From contig DRGC01000032.1 in the NCBI GenBank assembly GCA_011050235.1, positions 30,042-94,041 of the forward strand: 64,000 bases of DNA, read 5' to 3'. Position numbers and translations under genes: made by a program. Positions 1,984 to 57,027 of the stretch are shown piece by piece. Within the stretch, counting starts at the first letter, position 1. Every line of letters begins with the position of its first letter. The notes beneath the pieces were generated by a model that saw nothing but the letters and a program-made list of their open reading frames with translations, ran no database searches and was not told where the DNA came from. Origin of the DNA: Phycisphaerae bacterium (GTDB lineage: Bacteria > Planctomycetota > Phycisphaerae > SM23-33).

Positions 1984-2105
1984 CAAAGCTAAAAGCTGAA
2001 AGCTTAAAGCTGAAATTCAAGAACGACCGCCGCGACACGATACCGATTCTTGTTTTCAGCTTTTGTCTTTCAGCTTTAAGCTTTCAGCTTTAAGCTTTTG
2101 TTTCC
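1984..2105. repeat. inverted pair of heptanucleotide tandem arrays (NAAAGCT)x5 ... (TTTNAGC)x7 around a ~35-nt spacer
   Basis: CAAAGCT AAAAGCT GAAAGCT TAAAGCT GAAATTC, then a spacer, then TTTCAGC TTTTGTC TTTCAGC TTTAAGC TTTCAGC TTTAAGC TTTTGTT. It overlaps the stop of the DUF502 gene and lies upstream of the radical SAM gene. Confidence 0.8.
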
Positions 2106-5107: not shown

Positions 5108-5500
5108 CTAGTCGATCCCACCACCGCCACCACCACCCATCGCAACCAAGAACAGAAAGCTTATCGCCAGTAAACAGATGGCGATAATCACGGCGATGAC
5201 ACTGGTACAGGCCAACCTCATCGTCTGAAGAAAGACCCCTTCTTGTGGCGCACACGCTACGTATATCGGTCTATCGGCGCGTGGCTGTGGCATATCGCCC
5301 GAAATGCCTGTCTCAAGACTCATCCTGCAGAAGCGGCACACGAGGGCCACATACTTGATCTCTTCGCCGCAATATGGACATGCCTTCATGGCTGCCACAG
5401 TATTTCGCGTGCGGCAAACCGGGCATAATTCGATTTCACCCGCCAGCGAATCCGGCGCCTCCATAGGCGACCAGCAATCGGTGCACCGATAATAGATCAT
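5108..5500 (-). CDS. zinc-ribbon membrane protein (hypothetical)
   Basis: Four CxxC pairs (CTDC, CPVC, CPYC, CRFC) are followed by a TM helix and a poly-Gly tail. Start assumed at MIYYRCTDCW. Confidence 0.4.
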   Translation of the reverse strand: MIYYRCTDCWSPMEAPDSLAGEIELCPVCRTRNTVAAMKACPYCGEEIKYVALVCRFCRMSLETGISGDMPQPRADRPIYVACAPQEGVFLQTMRLACTSVIAVIIAICLLAISFLFLVAMGGGGGGGID

Positions 5501-6393: not shown

Positions 6394-8166
6394 ATGGGCG
6401 CGCTTGCGATCGTTGTGGTCACCTTTGTCGGCTATCTGGTCGTCTATCACACCTACGGGCGATTCCTGGCGCGCAGGATTTTCCGCCTGCGGCGCGACGC
6501 CGAGGTGCCGTCGAAAGTGTTCGCCGACGGCATCGACTTCGTCCCGACGCGCCGGAGCGTCATCTTCGGGCATCACTACACGTCGATCGCCGGCACGGGC
6601 CCGATCGTGGGCCCAGCGATCGGCATCATCTGGGGATGGGCGCCGGCGCTGATCTGGGTGTTCGTCGGTTCGATCGTCATGGGGGCCGTGCACGATCTGG
6701 GGGCGCTGGTGATCTCGCTCCGAAACGAGGGCAAAAGCATCTCGGAGATCGCCGCCCGCTACATCAGCCGCCGCGTGCGAACGATCTTCTTCCTGATCGT
6801 GTTTTTGGCGCTGCTGATCGTGATCGCCATCTTCGGCGTGGTCGTCGCGACGATCTTCAAGATCGCCCCCAAGTCCGTGATCCCCATCTGGTGTCAGATT
6901 CCCATCGCCATGATGCTGGGCGTGGCGGTGTATCGCTGGCGGGCCAATCTGGTGCTGGCCACGGTCGTCGCGGTGGCGGCGATGTACGCAACGATCTGGC
7001 TGGGCGCCGCCGGCGGCGACGTCGTCATGCCGGATCTGACGGTCGGGACGTTCGTCCTGCCGGCGACGGGTGTGTGGGTGCTGATCCTGCTGGCGTACGT
7101 GTTTGTCGCCTCGACGCTGCCGGTGACGCTGTTGCTGCAGCCGCGAGACTACATCAACGCGTGGCAGTTGTTCATCGCGATGGGCTTGCTCGTCACCGGC
7201 ATCGCGGCCGCGGCGCTGGGCGAGGGGGGCCTGCCGATTGTGGCGCCGGCGTTTCGCGCCGCCCCGCCGGGGGCGCCGCCGATTGTCCCGTTCCTGTTCG
7301 TGACGATCGCCTGCGGGGCGATCTCGGGCTTTCACTGCCTGGTCGCCTCGGGCACGTCCGTCAAACAGATCCGCTGCGAGACCGATGCGCTGTTCGTCGG
7401 CTACGGGTCGATGCTGCTGGAAGGCGCCCTGGCCGTGCTGGTAATCGTGGCCGTGGGGGCCGGCATCGGAATGGCCTATTCACAGGGCGGACAGACGCTG
7501 ACGGGCACGGCCGCGTGGGACGCCCACTACGCCACATGGTCCGGCGCCAAGGGCCTGTCGGACAAGGTCAACGCGTTCCTCTTTGGAGCGCGGAACCTGC
7601 TGGTCTCGCTGGGGCTCAAGCCCCAGTTCGCACTGGCGCTGATGGGCGTGTTTGTCGCGTCGTTTGCCGGCACGACACTCGACACGGCTACGCGCATTCA
7701 GCGCTATGTCATCAGCGAACTGGCCGGCGACCTCAAGCTCAAGCGCCTGGCCAATCGCTGGGTGGCCACCGCCATTGCGGTAGGCTCGGCGGCGGCGCTG
7801 GCCTTCACCGCGGGCGCCAGCGGCACGGGCGCGATGACGCTGTGGCCGATGTTCGGCGCGGTCAACCAGCTCCTGGCGGCCCTGGCGCTGCTGGTGGTGA
7901 CGATCTATCTGCGCCGCCGCGGCGGGTGGGGGTTCGTTCTCACGCTCGGGCCCTGCCTGTTCATGCTGGTGATCACCATGTGGGCCATGATCAGCAACGA
8001 GATCAACTTCCTGACCATGCCGGTCGCCGAGGGCGCGCTCGCCTATAAGAAATGGGTTCTCGTGATCATAAACGGCGCCATGCTCCCCCTGGCGGCCGTG
8101 GTCGCAGCCGAGGCCCTGACAACGCTGGTCAAGCCCAACAAGCCCCCCGCCGAGCAAGCGGCCTGA
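6394..8166 (+). CDS. cstA: carbon starvation protein A
   Basis: A 590-aa polytopic membrane protein. The CstA signature VIFGHHYTSIAGTGPIVGPAIG is present. Confidence 0.85.
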   Translation: MGALAIVVVTFVGYLVVYHTYGRFLARRIFRLRRDAEVPSKVFADGIDFVPTRRSVIFGHHYTSIAGTGPIVGPAIGIIWGWAPALIWVFVGSIVMGAVHDLGALVISLRNEGKSISEIAARYISRRVRTIFFLIVFLALLIVIAIFGVVVATIFKIAPKSVIPIWCQIPIAMMLGVAVYRWRANLVLATVVAVAAMYATIWLGAAGGDVVMPDLTVGTFVLPATGVWVLILLAYVFVASTLPVTLLLQPRDYINAWQLFIAMGLLVTGIAAAALGEGGLPIVAPAFRAAPPGAPPIVPFLFVTIACGAISGFHCLVASGTSVKQIRCETDALFVGYGSMLLEGALAVLVIVAVGAGIGMAYSQGGQTLTGTAAWDAHYATWSGAKGLSDKVNAFLFGARNLLVSLGLKPQFALALMGVFVASFAGTTLDTATRIQRYVISELAGDLKLKRLANRWVATAIAVGSAAALAFTAGASGTGAMTLWPMFGAVNQLLAALALLVVTIYLRRRGGWGFVLTLGPCLFMLVITMWAMISNEINFLTMPVAEGALAYKKWVLVIINGAMLPLAAVVAAEALTTLVKPNKPPAEQAA

Positions 8167-8189: not shown

Positions 8190-9536
8190 CTAGCTCTTTC
8201 TGGTCTTCTTCTTCGTCGCCTTCTTCCGGGCCGTCTTCTTGCCGACCGCTTTCTTACCGGTGGCTTTCTTGCGGGCCGTTTTCTTGTGGGCGGGCCTGGC
8301 GGCGACGCGGGGCTCGAGGATGTACTGTCCGCGGCCGAGGTCGAACGCGTCGTGCACGATGCGCAGGGCCTTCTTGGCGGACCTGGCCTCGACCAGACAG
8401 GAGATCTTGATCTCGCTGGTGCTGATGTTCTCGATGTTCACGCCGGCCTTGCCCAAGGCGCTGAACATCTTGAAGGCGACACCCGCGTGCGTTCGCATGC
8501 CGCCGCCAACGATGGCAACCTTCGCGAGGTGATCTTCGTAGACGGCCTTGCACTTGAGCTTCTTCGACAGATCGTTGACGACCTTCCGGATGTCCGGCAG
8601 GTCGGTCAGGTCGATGGTGAACGACACGGTGGCCGTCTTTCGGTCGACGACGGTCTGGATGATGTCGTCGACAATGATGTTGTGGTTGGCGACGACCTGG
8701 AAAATCTTTGCGACGATGCCGGGCCTGTTGGGCGTTCCGGTCAGGGTCACGCGCCCAAGCTTTTCCTTGAGGGCCGCGCCCACGACGACGATTCTCTCCA
8801 TGGCTTCGGTGGCAGGCACGATCAGGGTTCCTTTCCTGTTATGGTTGGTGTTGCGAACGTGGATCGGGACGTTGTGGTGCATGGCGAGTTCGACGGCGCG
8901 GTCCTGCAGGACGGCGGCGCCGAGGCCGGCCAGTTGGAGCATCTCCTCGTAGCTGATGCGGTCGACCTTGCGGGCGTTGGGGACGATTCGCGGGTCGGCG
9001 GTGAACACGCCGTCGACGTCGGTGAAGTTCTCGCACACGCCTCCCAACGCGGCCGCCATCGCCACCATCGACACATTGCTTCCGCCGCGCCCCAGCGTGG
9101 TGACGTGCCCATCGGGCGTGATGCCCTGAAAGCCCGCCACGATCACGATCCGTCCGGCGCGGAGATGTTCGCGGACGCGTTCGGCGTCGATGCTCTTGAC
9201 GCGGGCCCGCATGTGGACCTCGTCGGTGATCAGGCGAATCTGCGCCCCGGTCAGGCTGATCGCATCGACGCCGCGCGTGTGCAGCGTCATCGCCATCAGG
9301 GCGATGGTCACCTGCTCGCCGGTGGCCAGCAGTTGATCCATCTCGCGGCGCGGCGGGTCCTTGGTGATCTGGTGGGCCAAGTCGATCAGGGCGTCGGTCC
9401 TCTTGCCCATGGCCGAGACCACCACCACAACCTGGTTGCCCGCACGCCTGCACCGGATGGCCCGGTCCGCCGCCCGCCGAATCTTGTCGGCGTCGGCGAT
9501 ACTCGTGCCGCCGAATTTCATTACGACCACGCTCAT
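8190..9536 (-). CDS. lysC: aspartate kinase with an unusual Lys-rich C-terminal tail
   Basis: MKFGGTSIADADKIRRAA..VVVVSAMGKRTDALIDLA, plus ACT domains. Start placed at MSVVVMKFGG; the upstream extension in the ORF track is rejected. The C-terminal ~40 aa are KK(T/A)ARKKATGKK repeats. Confidence 0.85.
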   Translation of the reverse strand: MSVVVMKFGGTSIADADKIRRAADRAIRCRRAGNQVVVVVSAMGKRTDALIDLAHQITKDPPRREMDQLLATGEQVTIALMAMTLHTRGVDAISLTGAQIRLITDEVHMRARVKSIDAERVREHLRAGRIVIVAGFQGITPDGHVTTLGRGGSNVSMVAMAAALGGVCENFTDVDGVFTADPRIVPNARKVDRISYEEMLQLAGLGAAVLQDRAVELAMHHNVPIHVRNTNHNRKGTLIVPATEAMERIVVVGAALKEKLGRVTLTGTPNRPGIVAKIFQVVANHNIIVDDIIQTVVDRKTATVSFTIDLTDLPDIRKVVNDLSKKLKCKAVYEDHLAKVAIVGGGMRTHAGVAFKMFSALGKAGVNIENISTSEIKISCLVEARSAKKALRIVHDAFDLGRGQYILEPRVAARPAHKKTARKKATGKKAVGKKTARKKATKKKTRKS

Positions 9537-48838: not shown

Positions 48839-50275
<1,437 letters not shown>

Positions 50276-50276
50276 A

Positions 50277-50405
50277 GATTGCGGATTGCGGATTGGCGAT
50301 TGCGGATTGAAAAACAAAGTGCGGCGGGTCACTGACTCCGCCGCACGTCGTTTCTTCTATCTTCTGTTCAATCCGCAATCCGAAATCCGAAATCCACAAT
50401 CGCAA
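50277..50405. repeat. inverted pair of heptanucleotide tandem arrays (GATTGCG)x5 ... (CGCAATC-type)x5 flanking the ahcY terminator hairpin
   Basis: GATTGCG GATTGCG GATTGGC GATTGCG GATTG, then the terminator, then CAATCCG CAATCCG AAATCCG AAATCCA CAATCGC. It fills the 130-nt gap between convergent ahcY and the REC-GAF regulator. Confidence 0.85.
50319..50368 (+). terminator. rho-independent terminator of ahcY
   Basis: A perfect 9-bp GC stem (GTGCGGCGG...CCGCCGCAC) with a 10-nt loop is followed by the T-rich tract GTCGTTTCTTCTATCTTCTGTT. It lies 44 nt after the ahcY stop. Confidence 0.6.
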
Positions 50406-51404
50406 TTATTCGTTTCGCCGGACGGCGACCGCTGTTGGGCGGGCGGTCATTTCGGCCAGCGATATGTCCAGATCGGTGAAAGGCTGTTCGCCTTTGCGAT
50501 AGAGGACCACCAGGCCGATCAGTTCGCCCGGCTCGGGGACCAGCGGCAGCAGCAGAACGCTCAGGCCGGGCAGGTAGCGGCGGATCTGCTGGGGGAACTG
50601 CTCAGCCTCGTCGCCGGCATCCATCACCATGCACTGAGGGCTGGTCAGAGCGATCTCGACCAAGGGGAGACAAAGGGCCTGGCAAAACTCCAGTTGGTCG
50701 GGGGTGGGCACACCGAACCGCCCCATCACGTGCAGCTCGGCGTCTTCGTTGCAGACCAACGCTATGCCGTGGACCGGGCCGCTGCGACGAACGAACAACT
50801 GGAACAGCGAGCGGAACACGTCGTCGTCGCACTTGGCCCCGATCAACTCTCCCTGGTAGCCGATCACGATCTGCTGGAGGGCCATCTGGCTGCTGAGCGC
50901 CTTGTAGGCGGCCGTCAGGTCGGCGCACGTGCTGTCGAGCTGTTGGCCTATCTGCTTGCGTTCGATGTTGACCCCCCGGGCCAGGTCGCGCAGTTTCAGT
51001 GTGCGTTGCTTCGTGCGGTGTCGGGCGCTGCGGCGCTCGAGTTCCTGGCGAACCGTCATTCTCAGGCGGTCCATGTCCAGCGGCTTGGTCATCAGCTCGA
51101 CCAGGCCGATCTGGGTCGCCTCGGCGACGGCCTCGGTGTCGTCGCAGCCGGTGATGACGACCGCCGGAATGTCGCCGATGGTCTCGCGCAGGTGCGCGAT
51201 GACATCCAGGCCGGTGTGGTCACCCAGCCGAAGGTCCGCGACGATCAGGTCGACCGGACCATCGGCCGCCAGGGCCAGCGCCTCGTCTTCCGAGGCCGCG
51301 GCCAGCACCTGAAGGTCATCGGCGGCCAGCGCGTCGGTCAGAAGTTCCCTGAGCTCGGGTTCGTCGTCGACCACCAATACGCGTGCGGTCTGATTGCCTG
51401 CCAA
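50406..51404 (-). CDS. response regulator, N-terminal REC domain + C-terminal GAF-like domain
   Basis: VLVVDDEPELRELL..DLIVADLRLGD..G is a CheY-like receiver with a phospho-acceptor Asp. The C-terminal ~170 aa are GAF-like. Confidence 0.6.
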   Translation of the reverse strand: MAGNQTARVLVVDDEPELRELLTDALAADDLQVLAAASEDEALALAADGPVDLIVADLRLGDHTGLDVIAHLRETIGDIPAVVITGCDDTEAVAEATQIGLVELMTKPLDMDRLRMTVRQELERRSARHRTKQRTLKLRDLARGVNIERKQIGQQLDSTCADLTAAYKALSSQMALQQIVIGYQGELIGAKCDDDVFRSLFQLFVRRSGPVHGIALVCNEDAELHVMGRFGVPTPDQLEFCQALCLPLVEIALTSPQCMVMDAGDEAEQFPQQIRRYLPGLSVLLLPLVPEPGELIGLVVLYRKGEQPFTDLDISLAEMTARPTAVAVRRNE

Positions 51405-52043
51405 CGTCAGTCCTCCTGCGCCCCATCGAGGGCGCTCGGGTCAAATAGACGATCCACCGAAACGCTCAAGCGTCATTGGCGAGCGGGCGGCCCAGGTGTC
51501 AGGGCGGCCCGCCTGTCGCCTCCGTTCTAGATATCGGACTCGCAGGAAGCATCTTGAGTTTGCGCTGCGGAACTTTTCAGCCTAAATATCCCACCGTAAG
51601 GGCCGTCCAAAGAAAAACTTACAAGGGCCCGCTCTGCCCCTAGAGTGATGGGCACAGTCGTGTAGGCACGCCGGGGCTCTGCCAGCCGATGGCACAATGA
51701 TCGGGTGCCACGCTCTTGCGCTGTGTGCAAAAGCGTGAAGGGACCTGAACAAACACGCTTCTGCAAGTCCCGACGTATCCCGACGTACATCGGGAGGATG
51801 GCGCCCCCACCTGAGCTATGTAATATCGGAATCTGCCCTTAGCGGTCTTACGTAAGTTTGTAGCGGTTATGGTGGAAGATGGGCAAGTCGTGGCCTTACC
51901 CGTTGCCTCCCACCCGAGCTCAGCATATCAGAGCCCAACTGTCGCGGCCGGCCGATACCTCATGTGCCGATGTATCGTTCCGTTCGACCGAGATACCCCC
52001 TTTCCCAAGACCGGCAAGCGTGCCCCCACCTGCAGAGCCGTTG

Positions 52044-52078
52044 CATTGGACATTGGACATTGGACATTGGGCATTCGG
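52044..52078 (+). repeat. heptanucleotide tandem repeat array (CATTGGR)x5
   Basis: CATTGGA CATTGGA CATTGGG CATTCGG CATTGGG, immediately 3' of the minus-strand regulator gene. Seen directly in the sequence. Confidence 0.8.
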
Positions 52079-52113
52079 CATTGGGACGCCCCCCCGTCAA
52101 CCGGCCCCCGCCC

Positions 52114-52707
52114 CTAGGGCCGCACCAGGGCGACGATGCGGTCGACCACCTGCTCGATATTGAACGGTTTGCGGATGAACTCGTCCGCCCCCGCCTCCGT
52201 GAGGCGCCGGACCTCCGATGCATTGGCCACGCCCGATATCATCAGAATCTTGATGTGCGACAACTCCGCATGCCGGCGAATGGTCGTACAGACGACATTG
52301 CCGTTGACGTCCGGGAGCATGTAGTCCAGCACCAGGATGTCCGGGCGGAACTGCTGGGTCAAAACGCCGGCGTCGTAGCCGGTCGTCGCGGTGACGACCT
52401 CGAACCGATCATCCCCATCGAGGACATCCACGAACAGATCGATGATCTCCGGATCGTCGTCCACCACCAGGACGCGAATCTTGTCGCCTTCGATCTGGTC
52501 CAGTGGGATCTTGTTCGCCCTCATGAACGTGATGAGGCTATCGCGCGGGATGCGACGGAACTTGCTGCCGGGCACACGGAATCCTTCGAGCTGCCCGCTA
52601 TCGAAGCAGCGAATGATCGTCTGTTGAGACAGATTGCAGATCTGGGCGGCCTCGCCCGTGGTGTACACTGCCTTGTGTCGCACGCCTGCATCTCCTTTTT
52701 CGTTCAT
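52114..52707 (-). CDS. response regulator with N-terminal excisionase/MerR-type HTH (HTH_17) and C-terminal REC domain
   Basis: YTTGEAAQICNLSQQTIIRCFDSGQLEGFRVPGSKFRRIPRDSL is the HTH_17 region. RVLVVDDDPEII..DILVLDYMLPDVNG is the receiver. Confidence 0.6.
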   Translation of the reverse strand: MNEKGDAGVRHKAVYTTGEAAQICNLSQQTIIRCFDSGQLEGFRVPGSKFRRIPRDSLITFMRANKIPLDQIEGDKIRVLVVDDDPEIIDLFVDVLDGDDRFEVVTATTGYDAGVLTQQFRPDILVLDYMLPDVNGNVVCTTIRRHAELSHIKILMISGVANASEVRRLTEAGADEFIRKPFNIEQVVDRIVALVRP

Positions 52708-52903
52708 CGCTCGGCCGGCGCCGCTTCGATCCGCGGCGCCAAGGTAACCGAACGCCACGACAGCCTGACGCCGTAATGCGTCTGCTGATGAATCGACACA
52801 GTGATTGGCGAAACTTAAGTTTTCAAGCCCCCACCTTCCCCATTTTCTTCATCTTGCCAAGAGCGCCCCCAAGAGCTCGAAGCGCCACGTTATCGGACGT
52901 AGG

Positions 52904-52936
52904 TAAAGAAAAGGGGCGCCCGTTCGGGGTGCCCCT
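52904..52936 (-). terminator. rho-independent terminator downstream of flgM
   Basis: On the minus strand, the hairpin AGGGGCACCCCGAACGGGCGCCCCT is followed by TTTTCTTT. Confidence 0.5.
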
Positions 52937-52963
52937 GAGTGTTCGCAGATGGCGGTCTCGCCG

Positions 52964-53281
52964 CTAGTGTCCGATAAACTTTCCCTTGGTTTCCGGCCCG
53001 TCGACAGGAAGGTCCTTGGCCAGCGACTCGATCGCTCGATCGATCTTCTCCGGTGTCTCGTAGGTCCCCTCGGCGATCTGGCGGCGAACGCCGGTGACCA
53101 GTTCGCGTCGGACATCGGGAAGATGCCTGGCCATCTCAAGCAAGCGCTGGGCCGTTGCGGTCTCCGCCTCGGTCCGCAGCTTGGGAAGGGATACGGACTT
53201 CTTACCCGTCTTGATCGCAGTGGCTGTCGCCTTGGCTGCGCCCTTGCCTTTGCCCGAACCGCTACGAGATGAATAAGCCAT
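52964..53281 (-). CDS. flgM: anti-sigma-28 factor FlgM family protein
   Basis: Start at MAYSSRSGSG. The C-terminal VRRELVTGVRRQIAEGTYETPEKIDRAIESL matches the FlgM pattern (xxxLxxxIxxGxYxxDxxKIAxxLI). Confidence 0.55.
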   Translation of the reverse strand: MAYSSRSGSGKGKGAAKATATAIKTGKKSVSLPKLRTEAETATAQRLLEMARHLPDVRRELVTGVRRQIAEGTYETPEKIDRAIESLAKDLPVDGPETKGKFIGH

Positions 53282-53620
53282 TGTCTGCCGCCAGTTCAAC
53301 CGTGCGCATAGTCGCACAGATATCGAACCCGATGGGCCGGCCAATTGGGTCATCCTCCGTGATCTCCGTGTCTGGCACTGCACACAGGCTCGCAAGGTAT
53401 CAAACGTCTGATCTGTCGACCTGTCGAAGGTCGATGTGTGTGCGTCCTTGCACTATTAATATCGAAATACGGGGCCTTCCACCTTAAGAAAATGCTTACG
53501 GCGCTTCCTTCGACAACTCGTGCTTATATATATACTTGAATGGCTTATGCCGATCAAGACCAAAGTTTGAAAAGTTTTTCCCCGCCCTGGGGGCCGCATA
53601 GGTTCTCCACTGTTCATAGC

Positions 53621-55513
53621 TTACCCATCTTTACCGGCGGCGGCCGGTTGGCCGCGATTTTCGGCGCCGGCCAGGTAAATGGCAAGGACCGTCACATCGG
53701 CCGGCGTGATGCCGCTGACCCGCAGGGCCTGGCCCAGGGTGCGCGGGCGGATGTCGGTGAGCTTCTCCCCCGCCTCGCGCCGCAGGTGGCTGATCGCGGC
53801 GTAGTCGACCTCCGGCGGGATGAGCTTGGCGTCCAGGTCCTGCATCTGCCGCAGGGCCGTCTCCTGCTTGGCCAGGTACCCGGCGTAACGCAGATCGATC
53901 GTCAGCGATTCCACCGCATCAGGCTCGGCCTCGGCCAGTCGCCGCAATCGATCGGCCGTCGCGTCGTCGGCCTTGGCGAAAACTCGCTCGGCCGTCATGT
54001 CGGGCTGCTGGAAGTAATCGGCCAGCGTCTTGCCCTCGCACCGCGCAGCCGCCAGGAGGTCGCCGGCCTCATCGACGGCCGCCCCGCCCTGCTGGAAGCG
54101 CGCCCACCGATCGTCGGCCACCAGACCGACGGTCCGGCCGAGGTCGGTCAGCCGTCGGTCCGCGTTGTCGGCCCGCAGGTGCAGGCGATGCTCGGCCCGG
54201 CTGGTGAACATGCGGTACGGCTCGGTGACGCCCTTGGTGACCAGGTCATCGATCATCACGCCGATGTAGGCCTGGTCGCGCCGCAGGACCAGCGACTCGC
54301 GACCGGACGCGGCGAGGGCGGCATTGACGCCCGCGATCAGCCCCTGGGCGGCGGCCTCCTCGTAACCGGTCGTGCCGTTGATCTGCCCGGCCAGGTACAG
54401 GCCGCCTGTGGCTTTCGTCTCGAGCGTCGCCTGAAGCTGTGTCGGCGGGGCGAAGTCGTACTCGATCGCGTAGCCGTACCGCACTATCTCCGCCCGCTCC
54501 AGCCCGGCGATGTGATGGACGATGATCTCCTGCACATCCTCCGGCAGCGACGTGGAGATGCCGTTGACGTAGACCCAGTTGGTGGTTCGGCCCTCCGGTT
54601 CGATGAAGATCTGATGGCTCGTCTTGTCGGCGAAGCGCTGGATCTTCGTCTCCAGCGACGGGCAGTACCGCGGGCCCACGGCCTGAATCTGGCCGGTGTA
54701 GAGCGGGGCGCGGTGGAGGTTGGCGCGAATGACGTCGTGGACTTTCTCGTTGGTCGCCGTGATCCAGCACGGAATCTGATCCACGGCCAGCCGGCCGGTC
54801 ATGAACGAAAACGGCCGGGGGTGATCGTCGCCATCCTGCCGCTCGCAGCGGTCGGTGTCGATGGTCTCGGCCGCCAGCCGCGGACACGTACCGGTCTTGA
54901 GTCGCTGCAACTGGAGCCCACAGCGGACCAGGCTGTCGCCAAGCTTCTCGGCCGCCGGCTGGCCGTAGCGCCCGCCGGGCCAGGTGGTCTCGCCAAGGTG
55001 CATCAGGCCGCTCAGGAAGGTGCCGCTGGTGACGATGACAGCTCGGGAGCGGAATGTTGAATGCTGAATGCTAAATGCTGAATGGTCATCGCCACACGCC
55101 AAGCTAACACCGCAGACGCAGCCGCCTTCGGTGAGGATGTCAGTGACTTCCCCGGCAATGATCGTCAGGTTGGGCGTTTGGCGCAGGGCATCCTGGACCC
55201 ACGCGGCGTAGGCGTGGCGGTCGGATTGGCAGCGCGGGCCCCAGACGGCCGGGCCTTTCGAGCGGTTGAGCATGCGGAACTGAATCCCCGTCGCGTCGGC
55301 CGCCAGCGCCATCAGCCCACCGAGCGCGTCGATCTCTCGAACGATCTGCCCCTTGCCCACCCCGCCGATCGCCGGATTGCACGCCATCGCGGCAATCTCG
55401 GCCTCATCGAGAGTAATCAGCGCCGTCTGCGCCCCAAGCCGCGCCGCCGCATGGGCGGCCTCGGCCCCGGCATGGCCGCCGCCGATGACGATGACGTCAA
55501 AATCACAAGCCAT
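53621..55513 (-). CDS. mnmG: tRNA uridine 5-carboxymethylaminomethyl modification enzyme MnmG (GidA), with in-frame insertion encoded by a heptamer repeat
   Basis: MACDFDVIVIGGGHAGAEAA..., an FAD-binding fold and a length of 630 aa. The extra segment DDHSAFSIQHST is encoded by 55053..55086. Confidence 0.85.
   Translation of the reverse strand: MACDFDVIVIGGGHAGAEAAHAAARLGAQTALITLDEAEIAAMACNPAIGGVGKGQIVREIDALGGLMALAADATGIQFRMLNRSKGPAVWGPRCQSDRHAYAAWVQDALRQTPNLTIIAGEVTDILTEGGCVCGVSLACGDDHSAFSIQHSTFRSRAVIVTSGTFLSGLMHLGETTWPGGRYGQPAAEKLGDSLVRCGLQLQRLKTGTCPRLAAETIDTDRCERQDGDDHPRPFSFMTGRLAVDQIPCWITATNEKVHDVIRANLHRAPLYTGQIQAVGPRYCPSLETKIQRFADKTSHQIFIEPEGRTTNWVYVNGISTSLPEDVQEIIVHHIAGLERAEIVRYGYAIEYDFAPPTQLQATLETKATGGLYLAGQINGTTGYEEAAAQGLIAGVNAALAASGRESLVLRRDQAYIGVMIDDLVTKGVTEPYRMFTSRAEHRLHLRADNADRRLTDLGRTVGLVADDRWARFQQGGAAVDEAGDLLAAARCEGKTLADYFQQPDMTAERVFAKADDATADRLRRLAEAEPDAVESLTIDLRYAGYLAKQETALRQMQDLDAKLIPPEVDYAAISHLRREAGEKLTDIRPRTLGQALRVSGITPADVTVLAIYLAGAENRGQPAAAGKDG
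55053..55086. repeat. heptanucleotide tandem array (GAATGCT)x5 inside the mnmG coding sequence
   Basis: GAATGTT GAATGCT GAATGCT AAATGCT GAATGG. On the minus strand it reads in frame as HSAFSIQHSTF. Confidence 0.8.
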
Positions 55514-55575
55514 ACACCGATTCTAGCACACAGGCCCGGCCTGGTCATCTCCATCAGTTGCGGGCAGATAGTCCA

Positions 55576-56445
55576 TCATCTCGCCATGGGTGCGATCCCG
55601 GTTGGGCCCGCCACGGGCGCGCCCGAGTCGCCTGCGCCGGCCTGGCGCAGGTCCTCATGGAAATGAGCGACGGATGCCGCCATGTAGGGACTCAGCCACA
55701 AGAAACCAATGCCCAACGTCAGCATGCACAACAGCGCCCAGCCGAAGAAACGAAAGTACAGACAGAACAGCTTGCCCTTGTGTCCCTGCATCAGGGCCTT
55801 GCTCTTGCGAATCGCTGCCAGCGGGTCCAGCGAAGAGTCTTCGGCCATGAGGTAGAATGTCTGCGAATAGGCCAGTGCGGCGATCAGGCCCGGGATGATG
55901 AGCAATAGCGACCATAGAAATATAAAAATGCTCATCAGGATGCAGGCCCCAAGGGCATTGCCGAAGTTCTTGAACCCGACGAACAGCATCCCCATCTCCG
56001 TCTTCCCGCCACGAACGAGTGTCAGGAAGAACACTGCCCCTCCCAGTGCGAACGGACCCGACACGATCAGAGCGATCAGCGGGCTCACATACGGAACGCC
56101 GCCGCCGGACAGCAACACCCCCAGCACCAGAGAGAATGCGATGGGCAAGCCCCATCGCCCCTTGAGCAGGGCGCGCGCCCTTGACGTGATGTCACGATTG
56201 GGGGTCTCCCCACCCGTTCCCGTCAACGGCGGCGGAAGGATGGCAAACCCCGCTACCGGCGGTGGGGCCTCTCCGTCGCCGCGGAATAGATTCTCCAGCG
56301 AGCCCGCTCGCACCCAATCGGACATTCCGTCGGTCCAGACAAGGTGCTCCTCAAGCAGGCGTCCCTGGCCGATCCATTCCCGCAGCGTGGCCTCATCGAT
56401 CGGGCCATACTGCTTATCGCCAACGTAAACATACCACGTTGCCAC
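55576..56445 (-). CDS. membrane protein, N-terminal DUF4339 (GYF-like) + DUF975-like TM domain
   Basis: MATWYVYVGDKQYGPIDEATLREWIGQGRL... is DUF4339-like. Four TM helices resembling DUF975 follow. Confidence 0.5.
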   Translation of the reverse strand: MATWYVYVGDKQYGPIDEATLREWIGQGRLLEEHLVWTDGMSDWVRAGSLENLFRGDGEAPPPVAGFAILPPPLTGTGGETPNRDITSRARALLKGRWGLPIAFSLVLGVLLSGGGVPYVSPLIALIVSGPFALGGAVFFLTLVRGGKTEMGMLFVGFKNFGNALGACILMSIFIFLWSLLLIIPGLIAALAYSQTFYLMAEDSSLDPLAAIRKSKALMQGHKGKLFCLYFRFFGWALLCMLTLGIGFLWLSPYMAASVAHFHEDLRQAGAGDSGAPVAGPTGIAPMAR

Positions 56446-56481: not shown

Positions 56482-56874
56482 CTAGGCCGCTGGAGGTGCG
56501 GATGGCGCGGGTGGCGCGGGTGGCGTTGCCGCCGCAGCCGCAGCGCCCTGATATGTCGCGCTGCCGAAGCCCAGGATCGGGTAGAAAATGAAGGGTAAAA
56601 AGATAAGCCCAATGCCGAAGCCGCCCTCTTTGCCGAACTTCGCGGCAACGGCGAAGCCGACCTTGAAGGGCGGGATAAGGAAGACGATGGGAACGAAAGA
56701 CAAAATGAACCACAGAATAGGCAGTTTGGCGATCTCGACCGTTACAATGTACCCGTTGTAGACCGGGACCAGGCACGCCCAGCCCGGCTGGCCGGCCTTG
56801 ACGAACACCTTCCACAACCCTGCAATCATCAACACCATCAAAGCGAGGCAAAGCACAGGAAGAAGTATTGCCAT
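56482..56874 (-). CDS. small membrane protein (DUF5684-like)
   Basis: Start at MAILLPV. The VYNGYIV motif is followed by TM helices. Pro/Ala-rich tail. Confidence 0.4.
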   Translation of the reverse strand: MAILLPVLCLALMVLMIAGLWKVFVKAGQPGWACLVPVYNGYIVTVEIAKLPILWFILSFVPIVFLIPPFKVGFAVAAKFGKEGGFGIGLIFLPFIFYPILGFGSATYQGAAAAAATPPAPPAPSAPPAA

Positions 56875-57027
56875 CGATTTCCCTTTCCATAAAGTGCGGA
56901 CAGAACTGACCGGCCCATGCCTATGCAATGGGCAACCCCGTGCCTGGACCTACCGTCCCTGGCGAGGTCGACATCAATATCCCACAGAATCCTTTGCTGT
57001 GTCAAGAACTTAAGAATATTCGCCAGC

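Follow-up and report, generated by a model that had tools for sequence, protein, structure and literature searches.

Tandem repeats of seven nucleotides have been described in several groups of bacteria, and an array of this kind was found within the housekeeping gene mnmG (gidA) in a stretch of 64,000 nucleotides from a Phycisphaerae bacterium (GenBank assembly GCA_011050235.1, contig DRGC01000032.1, positions 30,042 to 94,041 of the forward strand), here called the window. Contingency loci, as in Haemophilus and Neisseria, are tetra- or heptanucleotide tracts that are long, perfect and variable between strains, and they reside in surface or restriction-modification genes. Dispersed tandem heptamers, mostly intergenic and sometimes inverted, include the cyanobacterial STRRs, GGGAATC of Xanthomonas and TAACTGA of Beggiatoaceae (PMC4692102, PMC4679880). 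Heptameric simple sequence repeats (SSRs) are over-represented in bacteria; slippage has been proposed as their source and no function has been established (PMC4692102, PMC4679880), and MacGregor pointed out that only the stop-free orientation can enter coding sequence (PMC4679880). Geobacter metallireducens carries 49 elements of four tandem heptanucleotides, located within and between genes, as well as paired five-heptamer sites, for which a regulatory role was proposed; translation and evolution of the elements were not analysed in that work (PMC2700814). The Rickettsia palindromic elements (RPEs), and intragenic MITEs in general, are short hairpin-forming repeats found both between genes and in frame in housekeeping genes, where they add a peptide without destroying the fold (PMC10969869), while REP/REPIN sequences are imperfect palindromes of 20-40 nt with a GTAG or CGTC tag and a RAYT transposase (PMC3733652).

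The array in the window is likely to be a real, inherited and translated insertion of heptamer-repeat DNA that is tolerated in a loop of MnmG. The host gene (53621..55513, minus strand) was identified by Pfam, PDB matches and Foldseek as mnmG, is intact, and encodes the 630 aa tRNA uridine-5-carboxymethylaminomethyl synthesis enzyme. The array occupies 55051..55086 on the minus strand, as delimited by Tandem Repeats Finder (TRF), reading of the sequence, a unit table and G+C content. TRF reported a period of 7 at 55052-55084 with 4.7 copies, 88% matches and the plus-strand consensus GAATGCT, and the five units read CATTCAG CATTTAG CATTCAG CATTCAA CATTCCG on the coding (minus) strand. A first-pass annotation had placed five GAATGCT-type units in frame inside mnmG, and this is borne out by TRF, the sequence and the intact open reading frame (ORF); the translation it gave for the segment also matches. 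The array encodes (D)HSAFSIQHSTFR, which corresponds to residues 143-155 of MnmG, in the context ...CGVSLACGDDHSAFSIQHSTFRSRAVIVTSGTF..., and its G+C content is 39% as against 64.3% for the whole window. The units are imperfect, with 3 mismatches relative to the array's own consensus. When the window was scanned for periodicity at lags 4 to 15 with a threshold of at least 24 matches in 28, two regions were detected at lag 7 and none at any other lag, except for the harmonic lag 14, which returned the same two; no lag-7 region appeared in 200 first-order shuffles of the window. The mnmG array is therefore far beyond chance.

Seven not being a multiple of 3, the units of the array are translated in all three phases, and the resulting peptide repeats every 7 residues (HSAFSIQ-HSTF...). 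On the coding strand, CATTCAG is free of stop codons in every phase, whereas its complement holds TGA, and hence only the present orientation could survive within mnmG. A 506-aa antisense ORF (53540-55060, plus strand) covers most of mnmG and stops at a TGA within the heptamer array; it is not a gene, being a typical spurious open frame of 64% G+C DNA. A six-frame scan of the window for 7-aa periodicity found no further translated arrays; apart from Arg-rich noise, it picked up just the intergenic arrays already known.

The gene was correctly called as mnmG. The protein matches the Pfam family GIDA (PF01134) with E=2e-157 over profile positions 1-390 of 391, together with both C-terminal domains, SAM_GIDA_C and GIDA_C_1st (PF21680, PF13932), and it matches the E. 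coli MnmG structures with E = 4e-179 (phmmer vs PDB). An AlphaFold2 (AF2) model built on a 59-sequence alignment was confident, with a predicted local distance difference test (pLDDT) of 87 and a predicted template modelling score (pTM) of 0.90, and Foldseek gave TM scores of 0.86-0.87 to 2ZXH and 9HIP. The catalytic cysteines C47 and C277, the importance of which has been stated for E. coli MnmG (PMC12397908), correspond to C45 (in CNPAIGG) and C284 (in GPRYCPS), both of which are invariant in the 59-sequence alignment. Alignment with E. coli MnmG (3CES, 9HIP) opened a single 10-residue gap exactly facing DDHSAFSIQH (55061..55090, minus strand, residues 142-151), in line with the earlier statement that the E. 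coli segment is shorter; of the 10-12 aa that had been suggested for the insert, the insertion itself stands, and its net length is 10 aa and not 12. The beta-strand that follows begins with the residues of the last two array units (STFR; S152, T153, F154, R155).

The AF2 model has the insert as loop 140-151, the tip of a beta-hairpin formed by strands 132-139 and 152-161 in the flavin adenine dinucleotide (FAD)-binding domain, and pLDDT falls below 50 at residues 145-148. By alignment offset the insertion site is close to E. coli G143/L144, within the FAD-domain segment 100-160, a numbering that depends on what we take to be the native N-terminus. The MnmE-contact residues of MnmG listed for the cryo-electron microscopy complex exclude E. 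coli 135-150 (PMC12397908). Secondary structure, pLDDT and the published residue lists, from which exposure was judged, support a flexible surface loop. Mapping of the insert onto the MnmG structure, which had been proposed as a check, thus placed it in a low-confidence loop at the hairpin tip, and the suggestion of a real, tolerated insertion in a surface loop is supported by this disordered tip and by the more than 70 of 80 orthologues that lack the segment (see below). With this additional floppy loop, the enzyme almost certainly remains functional.

Two features lie next to these sequences. An 11-nt inverted repeat (55029-55039, GTGACGATGAC; 55085-55095, GTCATCGCCAC), 91% complementary, flanks the mnmG array exactly, and it was treated as a chance occurrence since conserved residues (VIVT, GDD) are encoded there and no significant local fold results. 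Between mnmG and the FlgM-like gene downstream of it, the spacer (53396-53620) has a G+C content of 41-48% and contains a TATATATATA run; no heptamer array was found in it, unlike the equivalent spacer of the relative L082.

The alternative that the array is an artefact of assembly or sequencing at a low-complexity site had been raised in the first-pass annotation, and its probability is now negligible. Nothing beyond the repetitive nature of the site speaks for it, while five assemblies are 100% identical to the window across 4,893 nt with the array included (NCBI GCA_011050225.1, ENA ERZ940452 from SRR1555744, two from JGI, and Logan SRR7786958), and three or more data sets and different assemblers lie behind them. 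The gene has an unbroken reading frame and a full-length Pfam domain, and orthologous five-unit arrays are found in separate species, namely L081 and L095 (about 90% identical MnmG) and L082 (79%). The exact MnmG protein of the window is also public (P0121, MnmG [Phycisphaerae], marine sediment metagenome). No copy-number polymorphism of the array was visible at the assembly level among the five assemblies.

The distribution of the insert was followed in a set of 80 species-level MnmG representatives and among closer homologues. More than 70 of the 80, including Brocadiales, Pirellulales and Campylobacterota, have a short loop of the E. coli type, and the few representatives closest to the window (L001-L005) carry inserts of assorted lengths that are not heptameric. 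Among 120 homologues (54-90% identity; 121 clade members) the GV...CR loop ranges from 12 to 86 residues, whereas it is fixed at 13 aa in E. coli, Brocadiales and Campylobacterota; judged from these sequences, the loop is hypervariable within the Planctomycetota clade. The comparison with orthologues of close relatives, also proposed earlier, accordingly found the segment to be lineage-specific and the loop variable in length across the clade. Long internal repeats of unrelated kinds, extending the loop to up to 86 residues, were seen in the same place in P0102, P0074 and P0062/P0110, examples being NGDRHILQTAKETERNGDRHIFQTTK, PRAASCTPYDA...PRATSCTPYDA and a shared ...RSQSPAP...LRCR. In another Planctomycetota MnmG (L039:3391-3450) the neighbouring loop, upstream of the hairpin, contains TNDGANDGANDG, which is encoded by a 12-nt repeat, so that this region of MnmG accepts other repeat types too.

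The states at the loop were then read from the retrieved DNA of the nearest relatives. Two of them with about 90% MnmG identity (L095 and L081) carry five CATTCAG-type units in which CATTCAG and CATTCAA alternate; the last unit is CATTCCG in L095, as in the window, and the last two units have diverged in L081. The same five-unit pattern is present in L082 (79% identity), while L084 (74%) has five units that are all CATTCGR and L088 (75%) five perfect units that are all CAATCGR. Hence five units are found in the window and in each of these five relatives, and in L084 and L088 the total loop length, 32 aa from GV to GTF, equals that of the window. At greater distance, L085 (69%) has a decayed array and L089 (66%) has (CAATCCG/CAATCGA) x4.5, and three relatives carry a complete inverted pair in frame: L083 (66%) with (GATTTCG) x4.6, a spacer and (CGAAATC) x4.4, L087 (66%) with GATTGCG/GATTTCG arms and L086 (67%) with AATTGCG arms. 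The two arms of L083 are 100% perfect, and the RNA of this module is predicted to fold with -71.6 kcal/mol (z = -9.46). In the AF2 model of the L083 protein (P0030) the module segment is disordered (pLDDT 41-51) and the rest of the MnmG fold is intact.

The shared alternation of CATTCAG and CATTCAA and the CATTCCG last unit show orthology at the level of single units in L081, L095 and L082. Along the divergence the consensus of the right arm changes in one-base steps, from CATTCAG through CATTCGG, CAATCGG and CAATCCG to AAATCCG, and the lineages agree in their reading phase and in the junction "array - x - C - R - A - V". The probability that one specific change arose independently in 5/5 units is at most 1e-5; hence the arrays of the 74-90% subclade are orthologous and have evolved in concert. 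The view that a mini-satellite had expanded or inserted while keeping the frame is therefore correct as to the frame; the event is not recent, the array being old and vertically inherited with five units fixed.

Period-7 arrays are not confined to mnmG. The window contains six of them at four loci, three of which are intergenic, so that the earlier report of the same repeat class at three other intergenic loci holds for the period, although each locus has its own unit. The units are CATTCAG, GATTGCG, CATTGGA and AAAGCTG, which have in common only a loose S-ATT-NNR, and two of the three intergenic loci are inverted pairs that fold into long hairpins. The module at 50277..50406 consists of (GATTGCG)x4.7 at 50277-50309, a spacer, and (CAATCCG/GAAATCC)x5.6 at 50369-50406, and it occupies the whole gap between two convergent stop codons (50275 and 50406). 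Its unit families are those of the arms within mnmG of L083, L087 and L089, and the RNA of 50268-50414 gave a fold energy of -66.6 kcal/mol (z = -7.95). Nested between its two heptamer arms is a G+C-rich, terminator-like hairpin on the plus strand (50319..50346) with a stem of 10 pairs, 8 of them GC, and a T-rich tail, GTCGTTTCTT. The second inverted pair (1985..2098) has (AAAGCTG)x4.4 at 1985-2015 and (TTTCAGC)x6.4 at 2054-2098, and its right-arm unit, CTTTCAG, is one base off the mnmG unit CATTCAG; the pair is flanked by two minus-strand ORFs, and the RNA of 1975-2110 folds with -53.5 kcal/mol (z = -5.84). The third locus (52044..52084) is a single array, (CATTGGA)x5.9, with 91% matches in TRF and no partner arm, located about 30 nt past the stop of a minus-strand ORF (52114..52758). 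It is unstructured (z = +2.08), and its unit family also follows mnmG in L082.

In the 663 kb of fetched loci, 7 was the commonest tandem-repeat period, with 25 arrays that were all from Planctomycetota or unclassified sources, and it was again the commonest in 117 kb around mnmG of the close relatives (20 arrays); the arrays are often inverted pairs, each with its own unit. In L082 (3810-3912) a (GAATGYT)x4.3 array overlaps the mnmG stop codon, its unit being the inverse of the internal CATTCAG unit 1.4 kb upstream, and it is followed by a (CATTGGT)x4.4 array of the unit family seen at 52044-52084 of the window. In L085 a (CCGAAAT)x6 array (7413-7454) encodes the last 14 or so residues of NusB (gene 6923-7456; ...RPEIRNPNSEIHNPQ, then the stop codon); this NusB is 177 aa long versus 143-150 aa in relatives, and the translated array constitutes its C-terminal tail. 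Repeats of other periods were also observed in the window: a 15-nt tandem repeat at 8217-8291 (CGCTTTCTTGCGGGC, 5 copies, 73% matches), and at 56498-56525 a 9-nt repeat (GCGGGTGGC x3.1) that encodes the Pro/Ala-rich C-terminus (...ATPPAPPAPSAPPAA) of a DUF5684-like ORF (56482..56928, minus strand).

A search of metagenomes with the pattern (GATTKCG)3-N15-45-(CGMAATC)3 disclosed at least 120 contigs that contain it, and statistics were taken on the 83 modules, in 80 loci, among the matches listed. The arms count exactly four units in 64/83 cases on the left and 58/83 on the right. The modules have a median length of 83 nt and fold with a median of -48 kcal/mol; their short spacers (9-45 nt) are unrelated, with only a few arm-proximal 12-mers shared. 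A role as intrinsic terminator was rejected, as a T-run follows only 6/83 of the modules, although the pair at 50277-50406 of the window does have a terminator-like hairpin within it. A stop-free frame as the sign of a module in an ORF (33/83) was abandoned, because it over-calls in high-G+C DNA, and the claim was limited to candidates verified with Pfam. Ten candidates with long open frames on both sides of the module were tested, and all ten turned out to be Pfam-supported genes in whose reading frame the module is embedded. The module falls inside one Pfam match in two Ser/Thr kinases, in a DNA polymerase III alpha subunit (HHH_6), in an amidohydrolase and in an amine oxidase. It separates matched domains in HypF, a GT4 glycosyltransferase and a molybdopterin oxidoreductase; RecJ has it at the C-terminal end of a DHH match that is truncated, before DHHA1, and an MMPL transporter has it upstream of the Pfam matches. 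An MMPL-family transporter (L135:429-2840, minus strand) has two separate in-frame modules (LLDCGLRIADCGL...PQSAIRNPQSAI and ISHCGLRIADCGL...DDPQSAIEEG). The two kinases (L134:1041-3662, minus strand, and L143:97-2664, plus strand), both of the Ser/Thr kinase-TPR type, are 40% identical to each other and have modules with intact arms at the same point of the kinase domain, with unrelated spacers and in contigs of 59% and 43% G+C. In L139 a module at about 5112-5199 has no stop codon and stands between an apparent nuoI (4Fe-4S motifs) and nuoJ (MLELILFY... follows); it may be a fusion of two reading frames or an open intergenic module.

Units of the GATTKCG type contain no stop codon in any of six frames, and since the module is palindromic and 7 has no common divisor with 3, the same cyclic peptides result from all frames and orientations, DCGLRIA or DFGFRIS followed by NPQSAIR or NPKSEIR. 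A protein search with these peptides returned 257 matches, mostly "hypothetical proteins" of 45-90 aa that are probably mis-called intergenic modules. Specificity for Planctomycetota was rejected by matches in Verrucomicrobiaceae, Acidobacteriota, Nevskiaceae, Bordetella, Lentimicrobium and others. Many of the short translated modules (e.g. P0129, P0134, P0142) are labelled "major type 1 subunit fimbrin (pilin)" in JGI, almost certainly an annotation error that spread from low-complexity similarity.

Compared with the described systems, the modules are like the RPEs in that they occur in frame, in mnmG (L083, L086, L087) and in kinase, RecJ, HypF, DnaE-type polymerase, amidohydrolase and amine-oxidase genes, with the fold of the host kept, as judged from the MnmG models and from the ten other hosts with Pfam domains spanning or flanking the module. 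They differ in that RPEs are about 150 bp long with a full-length family consensus, whereas here only the arms, about 28 nt of four heptamers, are conserved and the spacers of 9-45 nt are unrelated; in addition, the mnmG copy of the window is a single arm without palindrome, inverted arms being present in L083 and in the intergenic pairs of the window, and the hosts are Planctomycetota and other environmental phyla instead of Rickettsia. The nearest published anatomy is that of the Geobacter elements, named Gmet_H4## or class-3 'global regulator binding sites', which share blocks of 4-5 tandem heptamers, multicopy and both intragenic and intergenic; their units are GGACCGG and MTYCTGA as against CATTCAG and GATTKCG here, and the H4 element is G+C-rich, whereas the present arrays are A+T-richer than their genome. 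With the STRR type the window shares three or more head-to-tail copies of 7 nt at several, mostly intergenic loci, but one or a few genome-wide units are found there and an own unit per locus in the window, and copy number varies widely there, while the mnmG array is stable across assemblies and arms have 4-5 units. As in contingency loci, the unit lies in an ORF and is not a multiple of three, so that slippage by one unit shifts the frame; unlike them, the mnmG array is short, imperfect, invariant between assemblies and located in a housekeeping gene. By inspection, the present arms are heptamer arrays and not palindromic REPs. A literature search on heptanucleotide repeats in Planctomycetes found nothing, which is weak evidence of novelty since subscription journals were thinly covered, and one with the DNA and peptide strings of the module found nothing relevant, its three matches being human primers.

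As to the origin of the mnmG array, the ancestral element would have been a module of the form (heptamer)x4-5, short spacer, (inverse heptamer)x4-5. Modules of this kind occur in intergenic regions of the window and stand complete at the same loop in L083, L086 and L087, and on these grounds the window array may be the surviving arm or remnant of a full inverted pair instead of a free-running minisatellite, a proposal for and against which the case is about evenly balanced. The common ancestor of the window species and the 90%, 79% and ~74-75% relatives already carried the insert, which has been passed on vertically with five units fixed; it is transcribed and translated as part of MnmG and adds 10 residues at the hairpin tip. 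Slippage should be rare, as a one-unit change breaks the frame and the units are imperfect; the consensus of all units nevertheless shifts together (CATTCAG, CATTCGG, CAATCGG), and this indicates occasional homogenisation within the array, that is concerted evolution, which could proceed via slippage cycles, gene conversion or arm-to-arm template switching. The insert would be selectively near-neutral and persist because the loop tolerates almost any insertion. Several observations weigh against this account. The window array has no partner arm, and no recognisable remnant of one was found. Relatives at 72-74% identity (P0007, P0008, P0009, P0011) are without any insert, so that a single ancient origin needs precise losses. 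Between CATTCAG and the AAATCCG/CAATTCG arms of the 66-67% relatives nothing is alignable, and homology is suggested by the graded series, position and phase. Changes of loop length in steps of 7 aa (three units), expected from the constraint on the frame, were seen family-wide in 6/43 independent sister pairs, which is the chance rate. Surface exposure and distance from the dimer and tRNA surfaces were judged only from secondary structure, pLDDT and residue lists. Finally, the intact modules of the kinases L134 and L143 imply that recurrent insertion or strong homogenisation happens, and this could apply to mnmG.

Recurrent independent insertion at a hot spot, with the CATTCAG array separate from the GATTTCG, AATTGCG and CAATCCG inserts, is a possibility that we regard as doubtful. 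The perfect arms of L083 are hard to explain if the insertion predates 34% protein divergence, unless they were renewed, and the hot spot would also suit the unrelated repeat inserts in the same loop of P0102, P0074 and P0062 with P0110, the close lineages without insert, the same-site kinase modules and the lack of relation among the spacers of the 83 modules. Within the 74-90% subclade, however, the shared five-unit length, boundaries and 14-nt alternation speak for a single event, even distant lineages have the 3' junction and reading phase in common with it, and no insertion mechanism, target-site duplication or transposase was identified, although no search was aimed at the latter two. 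Birth in place, by chance duplication of a heptamer and expansion through slippage with inverted pairs arising later by intrastrand template switching, seems unlikely. It would agree with the excess of heptameric SSRs seen in many bacteria, attributed to polymerase slippage (PMC4692102, PMC4679880), with the own unit of each window locus, and with the closest array-bearing sisters, P0021/P0037 and P0005/P0010, which differ by exactly 7 aa with visible 7-aa duplications. Free slippage would not give arms held so tightly at four units among the matches listed, though, and mnmG would be frameshifted at each intermediate number of units not divisible by three; moreover, the in-gene elements of L083, L086 and L087 are complete arm-spacer-arm modules like the intergenic ones, and unit families recur across genomes and phyla. 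A wider proposal, put forward tentatively, is that the mnmG array is the trace of a widespread, essentially undescribed family of hairpin modules of about 83 nt, with four-heptamer arms (GATTKCG and relatives), free spacers and a dedicated mechanism. Its range would comprise intergenic sites and in-frame copies in mnmG, the NusB tail, Ser/Thr kinases, RecJ, HypF, a DnaE-type polymerase and others, in Planctomycetota and several phyla. The fixed arm length, the intact arms in hosts of 40% identity and the concerted changes of unit would then argue for such a mechanism and not for passive slippage; it could be a mobilising enzyme, templated repair or homogenisation, or a protein that binds 7-nt-periodic arrays.

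Tests for a function of the insert were negative. Elevated nucleotide conservation of the array was not found, identity and third-position identity being at the 8th percentile in the comparison with L081 and at the 87th with L082. Accelerated evolution was considered for L081 versus L095 (3 mismatches in 35 nt, nominal P = 0.04) and rejected, as 12% of equal windows reach that value. The array in the window has no significant RNA structure (z = -0.43), and Rfam gave no match, either at gathering thresholds for the window as a whole or at E<=1 for 49900-55600. The idea that the insert is a protein feature or contact surface, an mRNA or DNA signal, or a slippage on/off switch for mnmG might appeal to the constant length kept over the 79-90% range of MnmG identity, to a unit that is not a multiple of three, whose gain or loss would switch the gene off, and to the very stable mRNA hairpins formed by the full modules of relatives. 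It is very improbable, given that the peptide is poorly conserved, the flanking strand varying even at 90% identity, that nucleotide conservation is unremarkable, that the three mismatches among the units suppress slippage, that the five assemblies show no copy-number polymorphism, that several relatives are without insert, and that the segment is without RNA structure and modelled as disordered. The insert is probably a tolerated passenger without a function of its own.

For mnmG, the array is a benign, lineage-specific loop insertion, and it demonstrates that a universal housekeeping gene can stably accommodate a repeat with a unit not divisible by three. The tip of the mnmG hairpin offers a natural map of tolerance, with 0 to more than 70 extra residues accepted. 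In environmental genomes, peptides with a 7-residue period account for many odd segments of the "DCGLRIA...NPQSAIR" or "HSAFSIQ" kind and for many small "hypothetical proteins" that are spurious. In free-living bacteria, the heptamer-arm modules seem to be a counterpart of RPEs, tolerated and apparently maintained in conserved genes, and as their concerted evolution can be traced unit by unit along the phylogeny, why the period is 7 and what creates or maintains the arrays are questions testable with existing metagenomes.

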